Source: Promethearchaeota archaeon
Lineage (GTDB): Archaea > Asgardarchaeota > Lokiarchaeia > Sigyniarchaeales > SOKP01
Assembly (NCBI GenBank): GCA_030603385.1
Contig: JAUVXW010000041.1
Coordinates: 1-35,711 of the forward strand
Direction of reading: 5' to 3'
DNA: 35,711 bases
How positions within the stretch are numbered: position 1 is the first letter of the stretch; each line of letters begins with the position of its first letter. The notes beneath the pieces were generated by a model. It was not told the DNA's origin. It was given only the letters and a program-made list of their open reading frames with translations, and did not search any database. Positions 4,372 to 16,855 of this stretch are shown one piece after another. Position numbers and translations under genes: made by a program.

Positions 4372-4896
4372 TTATATTTCCCCGGCATTTTGCAGACAGG
4401 CCCTAGCAATTTCTTCAAACACATGTTCTACATTTTCTCCTGTTTTCGCGGAAGTCTCCAAATATCCACAGCTTAATCTCTTTGCTAAGTCTTCGGCTTC
4501 TTCTTTATCGACCTCTCTCTCCAAATCGACTTTATTCCCTAAAAGTATCATAGGTATCGTTTTTTTTACGGTTTTCTTTATAGAACTTATCCAACCAGGT
4601 ATTTTTAGAAGAGTTTGATTCGATGATAGATCAAATACACCAAGAGCGCCATTGCTACCTTTAAAATAAATTGTTCTTAGCTTATGGAATTGAGGTTGCC
4701 CCCCGATATCCCATAAAAGCAAGCGTACCTGCTTTCCATCTATTTCGACATCTTTAATTAAGAAGTTACTTCCTATGGTTTTTTTAAGGTCATCACTAAA
4801 GTAATCTTTAATGTACCTTAATAGTAAGGATGTTTTTCCCACTCCACCAGGCCCGAAAAGAGTTATCTTGAACTTATACTGTCCTTTCCCCGACAT
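4372..4896 (-). CDS. Ras-superfamily (Rab-like) small GTPase
   Basis: G1 GPGGVGKTS, G2 TIG, G3 WDIGGQ, G4 NKVD, G5 ETSAK; SD-like AGGTG upstream; no C-terminal prenylation motif. Confidence 0.95.
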   Translation of the reverse strand: MSGKGQYKFKITLFGPGGVGKTSLLLRYIKDYFSDDLKKTIGSNFLIKDVEIDGKQVRLLLWDIGGQPQFHKLRTIYFKGSNGALGVFDLSSNQTLLKIPGWISSIKKTVKKTIPMILLGNKVDLEREVDKEEAEDLAKRLSCGYLETSAKTGENVEHVFEEIARACLQNAGEI

Positions 4897-7759: not shown

Positions 7760-8179
7760 ATGGAGCTTAAAAAGATATACCTTGTTTTATTACTTGGATT
7801 AAGTGGACCTATTCTCCTAATATTATCTGAATTTTTTTCCTGGTTTTCAGACTATAATTTAATTGAATTATATGTTATATATACAGATTTACAAATTGAA
7901 AGTTCATTTTTATTCCTCTTTCCATTAATAAGTGGAATTGTATGCTTAATAGCAAATGTTTTGGTAATATATAAAGTCGAATTTAGAATCAAATCCATTA
8001 TTTTATCTTTTGTAGGATTAGGGTTTCAACTACTCTTTTTTATTGACCATATTTCCCAAGAAATTGAATTTATCTCCGATGCAGGTCTTGGATTCTACTT
8101 AGGGATATTTGGCTTTCTTTTAATTATTATTAACGTAATTAATGTTTTAACCACAGTAGAAAACCAATCAGGAGGTTAA
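7760..8179 (+). CDS. Hypothetical membrane protein (about 4 TM)
   Basis: ORF with four hydrophobic segments; no recognisable motif. Confidence 0.7.
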   Translation: MELKKIYLVLLLGLSGPILLILSEFFSWFSDYNLIELYVIYTDLQIESSFLFLFPLISGIVCLIANVLVIYKVEFRIKSIILSFVGLGFQLLFFIDHISQEIEFISDAGLGFYLGIFGFLLIIINVINVLTTVENQSGG

Positions 8180-8233: not shown

Positions 8234-9067
8234 GTGGAATCGAGCTTTTATTATGCTTTGGGTCATGATATACGTAGAAAAATAATTAAAATCATTGGTG
8301 ATAACGATTATACCTCCTTTACTTATCTTAAAAAAGAGTTAGGTGTAAGCACTGGCACGATATATCACCATCTAGAAACCTTATCTGAATTAATTAAACA
8401 AAAAGAAGATAAGAAATATTATTTAAAAGATTTAGGAGTTTATGCTTATAAATCTTTAAAAGACAATATTGAAATAATTAAATTTCCTAAAAGAGTATTC
8501 AAATCCCCAATTCTAAAAAAACTAATGGTGTTAACATCTAAAAGATTCATATCATTTAATAAAAAAGACAGAATTTACACAATTTTAATATCTGTTGTAA
8601 TAATCATTCTTGGCACGATTTTTAGTTATTTAAATGGTTTTAACTCTTTTTTATTGTTTTTTATTGATACCAATCAAGATAATTTACTTCTATTGAATCA
8701 AATCTTAATTAATCTCAGTTTTATTTTAAACTTCTTTGCTTTTTTTATAATAGTGGAATCCATATCTCGTATATTCTACAAGAAAAACGAGAGTATTCTA
8801 AATTTTCTTATATCATTTGCGTTAATTCAGTTTCCTATGGTTATATATCTCATATTACACTTTATTTTTGAATATGCATCACTCATTACCATAAATATAT
8901 TCAATTTTATTGATAAAATTCTAATGATTATTTTTCAAGTTTGGTCTTTATGGTTACTTTCATATAGTTTGAGCGTAAAGAAGGGAATAAAAATTGAGAA
9001 TTGTTTAATAATTTCCTTATTATTACATTATAGTGGATTTACAATAATATTGTTAACGATCATTTAA
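8234..9067 (+). CDS. ArsR-type winged-HTH regulator fused to a multi-TM domain
   Basis: ALGHDIRRKIIKII...SFTYLKKELGVSTGTIYHHLETL...YYL (wHTH) followed by about 5 TM helices. The frame is open from 8180, so the start may lie upstream. Confidence 0.8.
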   Translation: MESSFYYALGHDIRRKIIKIIGDNDYTSFTYLKKELGVSTGTIYHHLETLSELIKQKEDKKYYLKDLGVYAYKSLKDNIEIIKFPKRVFKSPILKKLMVLTSKRFISFNKKDRIYTILISVVIIILGTIFSYLNGFNSFLLFFIDTNQDNLLLLNQILINLSFILNFFAFFIIVESISRIFYKKNESILNFLISFALIQFPMVIYLILHFIFEYASLITINIFNFIDKILMIIFQVWSLWLLSYSLSVKKGIKIENCLIISLLLHYSGFTIILLTII

Positions 9068-10364
9068 TAATTTTAAAATTAAATTCTTCTAATAGTTGTT
9101 GTATTTCCTGCATTCTTTTTTTAGACGAGTTTAAATCTTCTGTTTTAGTCGCGATAAAACATGTAAATTGATTAGATTTACTCAATGAAATAGGTGGGGT
9201 TACTAATTCCGGTATAAGGTTTATTAACTTATGGGCTAACTCTTCTTTAAGTTTTTTATTGAGTTTTGACTTAAAATATACTAATTCAATCCTTGTAAAG
9301 AGAGAGAAATATTGTAATTTTACACCCTTTGGCTTTAAACTGTCTAATTTTGAATCAAAAATCAATTTGGCGGGATTTTGATTAATTGCATTTCTTAAAC
9401 CTATATATGAGGTTGTTAATCTAGGATTAATTTCAATAAAATAAAATCTCGAATCATCGCTTTTTATTAAATCAATTCCAAAATATCCAGAAAACTGTGA
9501 AAAATCAATTTTTTCTAAAATTTTGGTCAATTCAATAGAAGTTTTTTGATGATTTTCTATAGGTGTGATTCCACCAAAATATTCAGAGGTGTAATTAGGA
9601 TTTTTAATGTTAATATTTTGAGAATTTATACTTAAAATATAAGGATTTTTAGTCTGTAAATTCAAGGAAGTAGCTGTATTTATTAAAGAGATACTTAAAT
9701 CTGTACCCTCAATGAATTCTTGAAGAACATAATTTCTTCCTGATTCAATTTTGTATTTGAAATTTTGAAAAAAATTCTCAATCTGATTTTTTGTCTCAAA
9801 AAAGTAAATTGATTCAGCACCAACGCCATCTTCAGGTTTAATTACGATTGGTTTTTTTAATTCATAGAATTTCCGAATTATAAATTCAACATCCAAATTA
9901 TTCTTCTTAAAAGGTATTAAATAAGTTTTAGGTGTTGTAATTTTATTCTTTCGAAAAAATTTATATGTGTTTATCTTAGATGTGCCTATTTTTATCCCTT
10001 CTAAATTAGTACTTAGAAGTATTTTATTAAAATTTTTAACAATATTAGTTAATTTATAGAGAATATTTGTGGACTCTGGAGCAATAATGAAAGCATATTC
10101 ACATTCTTTAACAAGAATTTTGAATTGCTTTAGATAATTTTCTTTTCTCTTAATTATTATAAAATTATCAATTGCTAACACTGTTGATAGGTGATGAATT
10201 CGATAATCTAATAATGTGTAGATTTCAAATCCTATAGATTTAAAGTCTTTAATGATAGATCTCAACATTCCAAAACCTTCGCAAAAAAGTGAAATTGGTA
10301 TATTAACTCTATTAAAACCTCCACCTGTGACAAATTCAAAAATAAAAATTCGTTTTTTCATCAT
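9060..10364 (-). CDS. ATP-grasp ligase, MfnD (tyramine-glutamate ligase)-like
   Basis: IFEFVTGGG, EGFGML, IIAPE, VIKPEDGVGA, QEFIEG, GYFGID and IEINPRLTTSY. Start moved to the ATG-ATG at 10364/10361. Confidence 0.8.
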   Translation of the reverse strand: MMKKRIFIFEFVTGGGFNRVNIPISLFCEGFGMLRSIIKDFKSIGFEIYTLLDYRIHHLSTVLAIDNFIIIKRKENYLKQFKILVKECEYAFIIAPESTNILYKLTNIVKNFNKILLSTNLEGIKIGTSKINTYKFFRKNKITTPKTYLIPFKKNNLDVEFIIRKFYELKKPIVIKPEDGVGAESIYFFETKNQIENFFQNFKYKIESGRNYVLQEFIEGTDLSISLINTATSLNLQTKNPYILSINSQNINIKNPNYTSEYFGGITPIENHQKTSIELTKILEKIDFSQFSGYFGIDLIKSDDSRFYFIEINPRLTTSYIGLRNAINQNPAKLIFDSKLDSLKPKGVKLQYFSLFTRIELVYFKSKLNKKLKEELAHKLINLIPELVTPPISLSKSNQFTCFIATKTEDLNSSKKRMQEIQQLLEEFNFKIIK

Positions 10365-10375
10365 TAGAAAGATAA

Positions 10376-10645
10376 GTAAAAGGTATAAAATCAATTAATC
10401 TTCTAAGATTTAGTAATCTAATAATAACTATCTTTAATATATTCTTTGATTATGGGGAGGCTGGATTTTACTATAATTTGAATACGGATATAGATATTAT
10501 TTTCCATCTACGATCTGATGATGATGTCCTTGAATATTTCTTAGAATATCAAGGAGAACCTGAAGAATTTGGTGAATCCCCATATAATAAAACCATTCAA
10601 GATGACATTAAATATATTGAAGAAATTATAAAACTCTATACTTAG
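10376..10645 (+). pseudogene. Possible small gene or gene remnant without ATG
   Basis: An 89-codon stop-free frame ending at TAG 10643-10645: ...FFDYGEAGFYYNLNTDIDIIFHLRSDDDVLEYFLEYQGEPEEFGESPYNKTIQDDIKYIEEIIKLYT. The only standard start is TTG at 10478. Confidence 0.35.
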
Positions 10646-10740: not shown

Positions 10741-11982
10741 ATGCTGATTCTGATGTTTTTTGACGAACAAACCAGTATGCGGATTCGATATCTGCACTTC
10801 AAAATAAAAAAAATTGAAGATGCTATAGTAAAAGAAGATGAATATTTCAATCTCGATGATTTAAATCTTGTTTTAGAATACACGAAAGCCTTGAATTTAA
10901 ATTATCAAAACAAAAATCATAAGGAGATTTTAAAAGATTTGGATATTACTAGTACATTCCAAGATCCTTTAGTTAACACAGAAATAGAGATTCAAGATAT
11001 TATGTTTGAGTGTGCTCGTGTTCTTTGGGTTATGGCAAGAGCTTATTCTCAGCTTTCTGAGAAATACGAAGAAGATGGAGTATGGGAAAATGCAGTAATA
11101 GCAATGACAGAGTGCAGTAAAATGTATAAAACTGCTGCATATTTTAGTGCTGCTGTTATTAACCAAAAGGATATAGGAATTACACTTGATTCTGAAAATT
11201 TAGAATTAAATTCAGAAGAATCAAGGATTCTCGCTCAAAGTATTGCTGCATTACGTGAGGAAACTAATAACAATATTTATTTTGCTTCAAAATTATACGC
11301 AGGACTTAGTTTATTATCAAAAAGATTGTTTTATTTAAAACAGCATAGGGAGAAAAAGAAGCAACAAATACGAGCCCAATTTCATTACGATATGGGAAAA
11401 GCTTGTCATCTTAAAGCTCGAGCTTCTTTAGAATCGTCAATAACAAATATCAATACAGAAAAAGTTAAAAGGCTTGAACAAAAAGCTTTATGGTATTATG
11501 GTAAAGCAAAAGATATTTGGGAAGAGATGATTAAAACTATTTCACTCTCAATAGAGGAGAAAGAAAGTATTGAGTTGAATTTATCGATTGTTAATGACAA
11601 TCTTAAACAAAACGATGTTAATCCGTTAGATTATGAGGATATAAAAAAAATACAAGATCCAGAACCGATAATTATTATTCCTGAAAACCTAGCTCCATTT
11701 GTACCTAAGAATATAATCTATTTAACTAAATTTGTACCTAAGGATTTAAATATTAAGAGATTTAAGGCTTATCAAAGGAAGAAGTTAGAAGAAAAAATAC
11801 CTTATAGCAAGAAAGAAAAATTAATTGATCAAAAAGCTGGTGTTGTTCGAACCATAAATGAGTTGAAGCTGTTAAAAGAGAGTAATGAGATAGATATCGA
11901 AAAATTTGCGGAATTAATGGAAAAATACTCAATAAAACTCAAAATGATTGAAACTGCTATCGAGAAATTAGCAAAAAAGTAG
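10741..11982 (+). CDS. Putative BRO1-domain (ALIX-like) protein with a C-terminal steadiness-box-like hairpin
   Basis: STFQD...IMFECARVLWVMARAYSQLS resembles Bro1 F.W.D...FEKA.VLFN.AALYSQ.A. The C-terminal RTINEL...NEIDIEKF...SIK aligns without gaps to the TSG101 SB. By-eye comparison only. Confidence 0.65.
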   Translation: MLILMFFDEQTSMRIRYLHFKIKKIEDAIVKEDEYFNLDDLNLVLEYTKALNLNYQNKNHKEILKDLDITSTFQDPLVNTEIEIQDIMFECARVLWVMARAYSQLSEKYEEDGVWENAVIAMTECSKMYKTAAYFSAAVINQKDIGITLDSENLELNSEESRILAQSIAALREETNNNIYFASKLYAGLSLLSKRLFYLKQHREKKKQQIRAQFHYDMGKACHLKARASLESSITNINTEKVKRLEQKALWYYGKAKDIWEEMIKTISLSIEEKESIELNLSIVNDNLKQNDVNPLDYEDIKKIQDPEPIIIIPENLAPFVPKNIIYLTKFVPKDLNIKRFKAYQRKKLEEKIPYSKKEKLIDQKAGVVRTINELKLLKESNEIDIEKFAELMEKYSIKLKMIETAIEKLAKK

Positions 11983-12007: not shown

Positions 12008-12478
12008 TTATTCTCCTGGCAAAGGTCTTTTCTCTTTTTCAATATATTTTTTACGATTTTCTTCTATTTCAAAATCCCTACGAGTTTCTTCCAAGAATAC
12101 TAAATCGTAGACTTCTTTTAATACCACACTGATTAGAAGCACCTCCATAAAAATGATTAAAAAAACTATTATCATTTCTAAGTTATGTCTATCTCTGAAT
12201 AAAAGTGTAATAAATAAGAACAGGTGTGGGATATAAAATAAGGTAATTACTCCAAGTTTTTTCCCTAATTTGATAATATTTTTATTTTCTAATTTGTAAA
12301 TCTTTTCTAAATTTGATACTTCCCATATATAGTAGGTGCAAAAGAATAGATTAATAGAACATAGAATAACAATGAAATCCCTTTCTTTAACAGTAAGAGC
12401 AATATAAGGCATTAAAAAAATTGAACTAAGTATAAAAGTAAATGAAAAAATAATCAAAATCAGCGCTAATGAAAGCAA
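12008..12478 (-). CDS. Hypothetical membrane protein (about 4 TM) with charged C-tail
   Basis: Four hydrophobic segments; start codon uncertain. Confidence 0.7.
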   Translation of the reverse strand: MLSLALILIIFSFTFILSSIFLMPYIALTVKERDFIVILCSINLFFCTYYIWEVSNLEKIYKLENKNIIKLGKKLGVITLFYIPHLFLFITLLFRDRHNLEMIIVFLIIFMEVLLISVVLKEVYDLVFLEETRRDFEIEENRKKYIEKEKRPLPGE

Positions 12479-15721: not shown

Positions 15722-16855
15722 TTGGTTATGAAAAAAAAAAAAAAGATTACCCCATTTAATTCACCGGTTTTATTAACAATAAACGCTTATAAAAGAATCG
15801 TTGGTTATGCTATTAGATATGCCAATGACGATATAAGTGAAAAGAAATGGCGTGAAGTATATGGAATCTTAATAGGAACTATAGAAAATAATGCTAAAGT
15901 TATCGTAAAAGATGCCATACCCATGGTTGTAGGTGATCGAGCAGGAGTTACTTATGAAAATAAACAATACGTTGATATGGCTCAAATTGATGCGTCTATA
16001 TTTGAAAGATCAGTTCAAGATGATAAAAATGATTTCATAATCGGCTGGTTTCACACCCATCCGAATTTTGGTTTTTTCTATAGTCCTATCGATTGTATGA
16101 CTCAGTTGGGTTACCAAATACCAAATCCTTTTGCTGTAGGATTAATTTTTGATCATTCTAAAAGAGATTCTAAAGATTATTTTCTGGGTATAGCTGGCTT
16201 ACGGTTAAAAGATCCTGACTTGGGCATGTCATCTACTTATAATTTGATAGAGTTAAATTATGAAGAAGATCAAAAAATAATGGCTCAAAAGGCTGATAAG
16301 GCTATCAAAAAGGTCAATCGAAATATTAGCAATGTGTTGAAAGAAATAAAATCTATCGATGAAGTGTTGCGTAAAAAAATGCTTGCTCAACTTCAGAGGA
16401 ATTATGGATTGATTTTAGTTCCAAAAGAAGATATTAAAGTAACCGATAATGAAGAGGAAGCTGAAGAGGATGAGCTCTATTTGTATGAGTGGGATCCAGA
16501 TTTTTTTAAAAAAACATATAGAATCCCAAAATTTAGAGAAAAAATTGAGAAAACCATCTCGGAAGCTTATGACGAATTAGATAAATTAGTGGAAAAAAAT
16601 GAAACAGAAAAATTTGAAATCAGAAAACAGAAATTGTCAAAAAAAATTCAAAATATGTTAGCGAAACCAAACGAATGGTATGATAAATTAATGGATGAAT
16701 TTTCTAAGAGAATAGAAGTTATAAGCCAATTCTTTAATTATTTAGATACTTATGAAAGAAAAATTATAGAACATTTTGAAGAGAGAAGTTCTGAATATTA
16801 CAAAATTTTAGACGACCTAAATGTCAGGGCAGAATTAAACTTAGAGAATTTTTAA
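15722..16855 (+). CDS. MPN+/JAMM metalloprotease (Rpn11/CSN5/AMSH-like) with C-terminal coiled-coil region
   Basis: EVYGILIG, DAIPM and IIGWFHTHPNFGFFYSPID form a complete E...HxH-x7-S-x2-D motif, followed by TQLGYQ. Start is TTG 15722 or ATG 15728. Confidence 0.9.
   Translation: MVMKKKKKITPFNSPVLLTINAYKRIVGYAIRYANDDISEKKWREVYGILIGTIENNAKVIVKDAIPMVVGDRAGVTYENKQYVDMAQIDASIFERSVQDDKNDFIIGWFHTHPNFGFFYSPIDCMTQLGYQIPNPFAVGLIFDHSKRDSKDYFLGIAGLRLKDPDLGMSSTYNLIELNYEEDQKIMAQKADKAIKKVNRNISNVLKEIKSIDEVLRKKMLAQLQRNYGLILVPKEDIKVTDNEEEAEEDELYLYEWDPDFFKKTYRIPKFREKIEKTISEAYDELDKLVEKNETEKFEIRKQKLSKKIQNMLAKPNEWYDKLMDEFSKRIEVISQFFNYLDTYERKIIEHFEERSSEYYKILDDLNVRAELNLENF

Follow-up and report, generated by a model that had tools for sequence, protein, structure and literature searches.

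A Bro1-fold protein with a C-terminal hairpin of the steadiness box type in a family of Lokiarchaeia

The protein described here is encoded in the genome of a member of the Lokiarchaeia (Promethearchaeota archaeon, assembly GCA_030603385.1) and combines a Bro1-like domain with a C-terminal helical hairpin resembling the steadiness box (SB) of the endosomal sorting complex ESCRT-I. The window, by which we mean the whole stretch of DNA that was analysed, covers positions 1–35,711 of contig JAUVXW010000041.1. The gene lies at 10741–11982 on the forward strand and, in the list of open reading frames (ORFs), comprises 413 codons and a stop codon. The original prediction, a note made from the sequence alone, rested on a peptide that is correctly quoted: it is the translation of 11800–11982 (+), is followed directly by the stop codon and makes up the C-terminal end of the ORF. 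Translation probably starts at the codon for Met5 at 10753, giving a protein of 409 amino acids like most orthologues, since these are 409–411 amino acids long and begin with an MFF or MTFF motif and since the match found in a search of the genome also begins at 10753. Residue numbers throughout are those of the 413-residue frame. A 56-codon ORF on the opposite strand (11762–11932) is without support.

A full-length AlphaFold2 model, built from an input alignment of 45 sequences, has a mean predicted local distance difference test score (pLDDT) of 88.5 and a predicted TM-score of 0.77. In this model a Bro1-fold domain (residues 1–322, 10741–11706), delimited also by Foldseek and VIA-align, is closed by an extended proline-rich segment, DPEPIIIIPENLAPFVPK (residues 306–323, 11656–11709), that was recognised from conservation and structural alignment. 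A basic linker modelled at low confidence follows (residues 324–356, 11710–11808) and leads into the hairpin. Its first helix (residues 357–380, 11809–11880; assigned by DSSP on the models) aligns with SB helix 1, the turn S-N-E-I-D (residues 381–385, 11881–11895) is, by the models and alignments, the equivalent of the G-x-I turn of SB proteins, and the second helix (residues 386–412) runs, with one last residue, to the end of the protein (11896–11979), the stop codon being at 11980–11982. All of these features are on the forward strand.

The N-terminal domain is predicted to be a helical solenoid that includes a single small beta hairpin, with pLDDT values above 90 over most of residues 1–322. 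When the model was compared with the PDB using Foldseek, the best 21 matches were all Bro1 domains (E 1e-6 to 8e-4), among them those of yeast Bro1 (1zb1), HD-PTP, BROX and ALIX. Alignment to these domains with VIA-align gave Z scores of 20.7–22.6 at a root-mean-square deviation (rmsd) of about 4 Å over 273–297 residues, within the model range 1–322, whilst the next unrelated fold reached only Z 12. The segment 306–323 falls within this structural alignment and is strongly conserved, P309, P314, E315, N316 and P322 being invariant or at least 90% conserved. The models thus support, for the domain that the original prediction had called Bro1-like, the Bro1 fold, a TPR-like, boomerang-shaped solenoid of helices closed by a C-terminal strap. 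By sequence the assignment is weak: Pfam BRO1 (PF03097) does not match the protein, it matches only one of 45 family members, a distant one, at 33.3 bits (E 3.2e-8, with a gathering cut-off of 35.1 bits), and a hidden Markov model (HMM) of the whole family found no Bro1 chain among the PDB sequences. A 511 amino acid protein of a second Asgard lineage (family f16; L091 1333–2868, +) has only the Bro1-like core in common with the present family (model positions 7–309, E ~1e-22) and closes with an acidic VEDA repeat and a C-terminal domain of about 80 residues that is unrelated, so that a Bro1-like fold also occurs in the Asgard archaea without the SB hairpin.

The C-terminal hairpin is also predicted confidently. 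In the full-length model, residues 357–380 and 386–412 form a two-helix hairpin at pLDDT 91–94; folded alone, the hairpin reaches pLDDT 92.7, with its first helix (positions 8–31) at 97–99. The antiparallel pair spans about 56–57 residues, within the 55–65 or so that are usual for an SB. Confidence in the linker is much lower, at 51–57 over residues 330–360 and below 50 at 330–336 and 349–355. In a Foldseek search of the PDB with the hairpin model the first six matches were chains of the ESCRT-I headpiece (rmsd 0.9–2.2 Å, TM-score 0.75–0.86), and when 48,161 representatives were searched exhaustively with VIA the yeast ESCRT-I core chains 2caz_D, 2p22_A and 2f66_A came first at Z 9.4. The possibility that the hairpin is a remnant of the ALIX V domain was rejected: superposed on full-length ALIX (2oev), the model aligns no further than residue 321.

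The resemblance to an SB was first proposed from an ungapped alignment to a stretch of human TSG101. That stretch, as the original prediction gave it, occurs letter for letter in PDB chain 6vme_B, and 11 of the 55 aligned positions are identical, just those that had been listed (Y355, L361, T371, I372, L375, I384, D385, F389, S397, K399 and K409). Its BLOSUM62 score of 23 compares with −38.5 ± 16 for residue shuffles in the fixed register, 1 in 20,000 of which attains 23. Another offset along the protein, however, scores 19, and the pairwise match taken alone is therefore marginal. A phmmer search of the PDB with the protein did not find an ESCRT chain.

Because direct sequence searches failed, custom profiles were built: a profile of the family hairpin (A3) and an Asgard SB reference (A5) made from the C-terminal hairpins of Vps23-like proteins of about 260 amino acids, which came from a Vps23_core scan of 151 Asgard genomes. 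The best PDB match of A5 is human TSG101 (6vme_B; E 0.001, with the full hairpin covered), which validates A5 as an SB reference. Comparison of A3 with A5 by hhalign gave 96.2% (P 2.3e-9, score 46.7) over 56 columns without a gap. The controls lie far lower: 100 column shuffles scored 10.4 ± 2.1, with a maximum of 16.9, the reversed A5 scored 16.5 and a helix-swapped A5 scored 22.6, with helix 2 pairing with helix 2. Helix 2 alone scored 22.4 against SB helix 2 (70%). The register of the TSG101 alignment is the same as that obtained along the chain from A3 through A5 to TSG101.

Comparisons with other hairpins of these organisms place the result in context. A3 matched the hairpin of the family's own Znr_PH_CC_SB protein at 93.3% (score 36.3) in the same register, and A5 matched that hairpin at 97.7% (score 61.9). 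Against the N-terminal hairpin of Vps28, A3 reached only 3.4% (score 15.6) and against the cytoplasmic C-terminal hairpin of OST1 only 15% (score 21.2, out of register); A5 itself matched these two at 80% and 88%, respectively. Independently, the full-length family HMM matched the C-termini of Vps23-like ORFs of 250–287 amino acids in other Asgard lineages with positions 343–412 only (E 8e-7 to 7e-6), in one case (G076:C28) at the exact Vps23_core site. On account of these hhalign comparisons, strong against A5 and Znr_PH_CC_SB and weak against the other hairpins, the profiles place the hairpin as a divergent but genuine member of the SB group, nearest to the Vps23 and Znr_PH_CC_SB types. The original prediction of an SB-like C-terminus is borne out to this extent: a helical hairpin is predicted, and its closest detectable relatives are SBs of the Vps23 type.

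Individual residues follow the same pattern. F389, L392 and Y396 stand at the positions of three residues that are invariant in the Asgard SB alignment, Y47, L50 and Y54, and the turn S-N-E-I-D aligns with 'a-g-e-I' in the Asgard SB and with 'R-G-V-I-D' in TSG101. The orthologues of one genus carry GEISLENYTKLYEKYK, near the Asgard SB consensus GEI-PTDYTKLYRKYK. Six outward-facing residues (K365, R370, T371, E391, E394 and K395) are 88–94% conserved in the sampled family, members of 25% identity included, which suggests a binding surface.

SB-like hairpins are not limited to ESCRT proteins. The OST1/ribophorin-I homologue of this genome (616 amino acids, G000:C51:50469-52340; L119 467–2317, −) has a cytoplasmic helical hairpin at its C-terminal end, matched by the Asgard SB profile at E 0.0014, and its solved counterpart from MK-D1 (8whn) is among the structural matches of the Bro1-SB hairpin.

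The fusion itself is strictly conserved within one family. The survey of Asgard genomes that the original prediction had proposed sampled 151 genomes of the phylum; full-length matches were found in all 25 that belong to the window's own family and in none from any other. In a second sample of the same family, every one of the 27 genomes, from all 13 genera, has the fusion gene. Close relatives number in the hundreds, all from metagenome-assembled genomes of Asgard archaea labelled Lokiarchaeota or Promethearchaeota, and clustering at 50% leaves only 55 representatives. The orthologue in Lokiarchaeum sp. GC14_75 is Lokiarch_26770 (KKK43463.1), which carries the automatic UniRef name 'BRO1 domain-containing protein'; a literature search on these two accessions found no paper naming it in the library that was searched. 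Many family genomes encode additional, longer paralogues of 500–770 amino acids in which the same Bro1 and SB-hairpin core is preceded by an HHH_5 (helix-hairpin-helix) domain at the N-terminus and by a basic spacer of low complexity (P0124–P0138; for example G113:C27:130319-131545, L085). A search of the source genome found the short form only. Orthologue matches in one genus and in G008 that seemed to stop inside the protein end at natural stop codons. In one genome the gene is seemingly split into a 322 amino acid Bro1 ORF and an adjoining ORF of 92 amino acids for linker and hairpin (G156:C331:1658-2554 and 2556-2819), perhaps through a frameshift error, perhaps as a natural split.

Which proteins might the hairpin meet in the cell? 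The source genome encodes a Vps28 of 218 amino acids (contig C41), a fusion protein with a Vps28 C-terminal domain in an open frame of ~796 codons (C30), an EAP30/Vps22 homologue (C57) and a single detected Snf7-family protein of 215 amino acids (G000:C4:183874-184311; L118 9773–10420, −). A scan for Vps25 (PF05871) gave no match in this genome, but was uninformative as its control also matched nowhere. Neither the source genome nor most others of the family yielded a canonical UEV-Vps23, which weighs against a simple wiring centred on Vps28. Another candidate is the 673 amino acid Znr_PH_CC_SB protein (G000:C4:180610-182628; L118 6611–8632, +), in which N-terminal zinc ribbons and a Q/N/P-rich spacer precede a C-terminal SB. 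Its gene lies about 1.1 kb from that of the only detected Snf7-family ESCRT-III protein, with a MetE-like gene between them.

Distribution across the 27 family genomes distinguishes these candidates. Znr_PH_CC_SB is found alongside the Bro1-SB gene in 26 of them and a full-length Vps28, N-terminal hairpin included, in only 18; in eight of the nine others, from five genera, only the fusion of ~790 amino acids with the Vps28 C-terminal domain was found. By co-occurrence alone, the most consistent candidate partners are therefore Znr_PH_CC_SB and a second copy of the hairpin, and not Vps28. A complex prediction for the hairpin (A3) with the N-terminal 105 residues of Vps28 (A4) gave 0.00 in both runs and speaks neither for nor against their interaction.

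There is published precedent for contacts of this kind. Experiments showed, in Odinarchaeota, a trimer made up of a Vps23 dimer and Vps28 and, in Lokiarchaeota, an interaction of Vps28 with an SB protein that stands free (Hatano et al. 2022; PMC9192718). More generally, the SB is fused to many different domains in the Asgard archaea and docking of such fusions onto the SBs of ESCRT-I has been proposed (Makarova et al. 2024; PMC10936438). What Eme et al. (2023; PMC10307638) report as 'Bro1' homologues do not belong to the present family: they are short, come from other lineages (Hod-, Njord- and Thorarchaeia) and carry the label of a different Pfam model, PF18097.

The neighbourhood of the gene is also partly conserved. 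Directly upstream and divergent lies an ATP-grasp_3/preATP-grasp_3 gene (9060–10394, −), which is kept in all short-form orthologue loci for which the upstream flank was fetched and also beside the 25–28%-identical members from other lineages (L095 and L096). The latter two loci further contain the same 139 amino acid gene, a gene of about 300 amino acids at the place of the helix-turn-helix (HTH)-membrane gene, and a small GTPase of the Ras/Arf type; in the window, the neighbours noted together with the ATP-grasp gene are at 7760–8179 (+) and 8234–9067 (+). These recurring upstream neighbours may reflect deep synteny or a functional link. Downstream and convergent is a gene for a multi-pass membrane protein of 156 amino acids (12008–12478, −) with no Pfam match, whose position is kept in most orthologous loci. 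Within 7 kb of the Bro1-SB gene are also a 377 amino acid JAB/MPN-domain protein, possibly of the deubiquitinase type (15722–16855, +), and a Ras-family small GTPase of 174 amino acids (4372–4896, −).

Several observations weigh against reading the hairpin as an SB with an ESCRT-I-type role. Neither the protein nor its last 60 residues matches Pfam Vps23_core at E ≤ 1, and neither gave a match to SHOCT or BRO1. Scanned with Pfam, the 33 family hairpins gave weak matches only, four to SHOCT, four to CdvA, two to the SHOCT-like DUF1707 and one to Vps23_core (E 0.048, the gathering cut-off being 26.8 bits). An HMM of the Asgard SB failed to retrieve the protein from the ORFs of this genome at E ≤ 10, and hmmsearch of the PDB sequences with either the hairpin profile or the whole-family profile found no ESCRT chain. 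In the fold searches the ESCRT-I chains do not stand apart statistically from hairpins of unrelated proteins: Foldseek E is at least 0.44, and their Z of 9.4 compares with 8–9 for the others. The 'A-I-E-D' signature of SB helix 1 is replaced by G-V-V-R, with Arg370, 94% conserved, at the position of the signature Asp that is invariant in the Asgard SB, present in TSG101 and Glu in Znr_PH_CC_SB; nor does a coiled-coil stalk precede the hairpin. SB-like motifs in the OST1 tail and in SHOCT-annotated proteins mean that homology is no guarantee of ESCRT-I function. In nine of the 27 family genomes the Bro1-SB gene is kept and a full-length Vps28 was not found, and this phyletic pattern argues against an obligate partnership with Vps28. 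Lastly, no ESCRT gene lies near the Bro1-SB gene in the window. This says little, however, because the ESCRT genes of this genome are scattered: those for Vps28, the EAP30/Vps22 homologue, Snf7 and Znr_PH_CC_SB are on different contigs or interleaved with metabolic genes.

Weighing these points against a confidently predicted hairpin, its homology to the SB at profile level, the Bro1 fold and a strictly conserved fusion, which we regard as established, we think it probable, though well short of certain, that the protein tethers an SB-type assembly module to a Bro1-fold adaptor that engages ESCRT-III. The hairpin would serve as the assembly module, its hydrophobic stripe being buried by packing on other SB-type hairpins. 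Candidate packing partners would be a second copy of the protein, the family's universal Znr_PH_CC_SB and/or the N-terminal hairpin of Vps28. In the manner of its eukaryotic counterparts, the Bro1 domain would engage ESCRT-III, for which one protein, of the Snf7 family, was detected in this genome. Overall, the protein would be an ALIX-like adaptor covalently plugged into an SB-based, ESCRT-I-like assembly network of the Lokiarchaeia. The packing of SB on SB, the identity of the partner and the binding of ESCRT-III are what we infer here from the homologies and the co-occurrence. The wiring envisaged in the original prediction, in which the hairpin would sit in an ESCRT-I headpiece with Vps23 and Vps28 and ESCRT-II would be bypassed, is a plausible hypothesis. 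Three findings weigh against a simple form of it centred on Vps28: the canonical UEV-Vps23 that was not found, the patchy occurrence of full-length Vps28 and the Arg in place of the signature Asp.

A bolder version can be offered only tentatively, and we would not wager on it: that the protein is a covalent ALIX-like subunit of an SB-built ESCRT-I-like assembly, that its Bro1 domain recruits or nucleates ESCRT-III directly and that the ALIX–TSG101 link of eukaryotes descends from, or was preceded by, such a fusion. If this is true, a direct route from ESCRT-I to ESCRT-III existed before the eukaryotes. On this version the charge reversal from Asp to Arg could encode heterotypic pairing with an Asp- or Glu-bearing SB such as that of Znr_PH_CC_SB.

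Somewhat less probable again is that the hairpin is a generic self-association module, SHOCT-like or simply a coiled coil, that dimerises the Bro1 protein in the manner of the ALIX V domain and makes no ESCRT-I-type contact. The motif classes do overlap. SHOCT and DUF1707 are among the commonest of the weak Pfam matches described above, although the best member (E 0.0039) falls below the 27-bit cut-off of SHOCT (PF09851); a profile of a mixed Asgard 'SHOCT' set matched the family hairpin at 89% (score 31.2), and the Asgard SB profile itself matched that set at 92.7%. The higher score against this first set arose because it included members with long SB-like helices. Retention of the gene where a full-length Vps28 was not found would also fit self-association, as would the homodimerisation of Odinarchaeal Vps23 (PMC9192718). 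A better match to SHOCT was among the outcomes that the original prediction had named as refuting it, but SHOCT was rejected as the best label: nine canonical SHOCT domains align only at the turn, at 45% (score 21.8) over 20 columns, compared with all 56 residues at 96% for the Vps23-type SB. At 24 and 27 residues, the helices of the hairpin have roughly twice the length of those in the SHOCT model, which has 28 positions; real Vps23-like C-termini in other lineages are matched by the family HMM, and homodimerisation and hetero-assembly can in any case coexist. A reading as CdvA was likewise rejected, the evidence for it being weak Pfam matches and a poor rmsd only.

It is improbable that the hairpin is instead an intramolecular regulator that folds back onto the Bro1 domain, for example onto its ESCRT-III-binding surface, and autoinhibits the protein until a partner releases it. 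The flexible linker of about 30 residues would allow this, the conserved charged surface of the hairpin could equally face the Bro1 domain, and ALIX, which is autoinhibited through intramolecular contacts, offers a precedent. The hairpin nevertheless folds confidently alone, the linker is modelled at low confidence and not as a docked element, and homology to an intermolecular assembly module speaks for an intermolecular role. That the resemblance is due to chance or composition, two amphipathic hairpins without common ancestry, can be all but set aside: the match to TSG101 is of only 20% identity with a nearly equal score at another offset, and fold matches of short hairpins are non-specific, but the profile–profile score exceeds the column-shuffle null by about 17 standard deviations and is well clear of both the reversed and the helix-swapped control, other real hairpins from the same organisms (Vps28-N and the OST1 tail) fail to match, the HMM independently matches the sequences of Vps23-like C-termini and the orthologues of one genus carry the intermediate motif YTKLYEKYK.

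On the favoured reading, an SB hairpin tethered to an ESCRT-III-engaging Bro1 fold, what is new is the domain architecture, which is assembled from known modules in a fusion not known in eukaryotes. Bro1/ALIX was the one major ESCRT accessory module reported as not identifiable in the Asgard archaea by a 2024 survey (PMC10936438); here a Bro1 fold is present family-wide. If the hairpin docks onto SB proteins, a connection between Bro1 and ESCRT-I predates the eukaryotes in a simpler, covalent form. Two small domains with defined candidate partners would also offer a testable handle on how, in the archaea most closely related to eukaryotes, upstream ESCRT components hand over to ESCRT-III.

Compared with known systems, the hairpin has its more distant parallels in CdvA and SHOCT. 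The helical hairpin of CdvA (PF18822; S. islandicus filament, 9S9G) has been linked to the SB by published analysis (PMC10936438) and is structurally alignable at Z 8.8, but the rmsd is 4.0 Å, the archaeal hairpin described here lacks the context of a PRC barrel or E3B peptide, and CdvA belongs to the TACK lineage. SHOCT and DUF1707 have in common with it a C-terminal helix / G-x-I-(T/S)-x-x-E-F / helix turn motif, the SHOCT model having 28 positions against the 56 residues of the hairpin. The parallel with the SB, or Vps23 core, of ESCRT-I (PF09454; TSG101 6VME; yeast Vps23 2F66, 2CAZ, 2P22 and 2F6M) is closer: both have a C-terminal hairpin of about 57 residues in the same register, with core residues L375, I384, F389, L392 and Y396 matching L, I, Y/F, L and Y, and a common turn motif x-E/V-I-D, and these structures are the best-ranked structural matches at an rmsd of about 1 Å. 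The archaeal hairpin differs in falling below the Pfam threshold, in having Arg for the Asp of 'AIED' and in being preceded by a Bro1 domain and a short linker instead of a UEV domain and coiled-coil stalk. Its closest sequence relatives are the Asgard UEV-Vps23-like proteins of about 260 amino acids and Znr_PH_CC_SB (asCOG cog.011556). Fusion of the SB to varied domains is a theme common to the Asgard SB proteins; the difference here is that the N-terminal partner has a Bro1 fold.

With the eukaryotic Bro1 proteins (ALIX/PDCD6IP, yeast Bro1, HD-PTP/PTPN23 and BROX) the archaeal protein has in common the Bro1 fold, at Z ~22, and the extended, proline-containing C-terminal strap. Sequence identity is 11–14%, and the V domain, proline-rich region, PDZ, phosphatase and CAAX elements are absent from the archaeal protein. 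In eukaryotes, ALIX is joined to ESCRT-I non-covalently, through the contact between its PSAP motif and the UEV domain, whereas in the archaeal protein a hairpin of the ESCRT-I assembly type is covalently fused to the predicted Bro1 domain.

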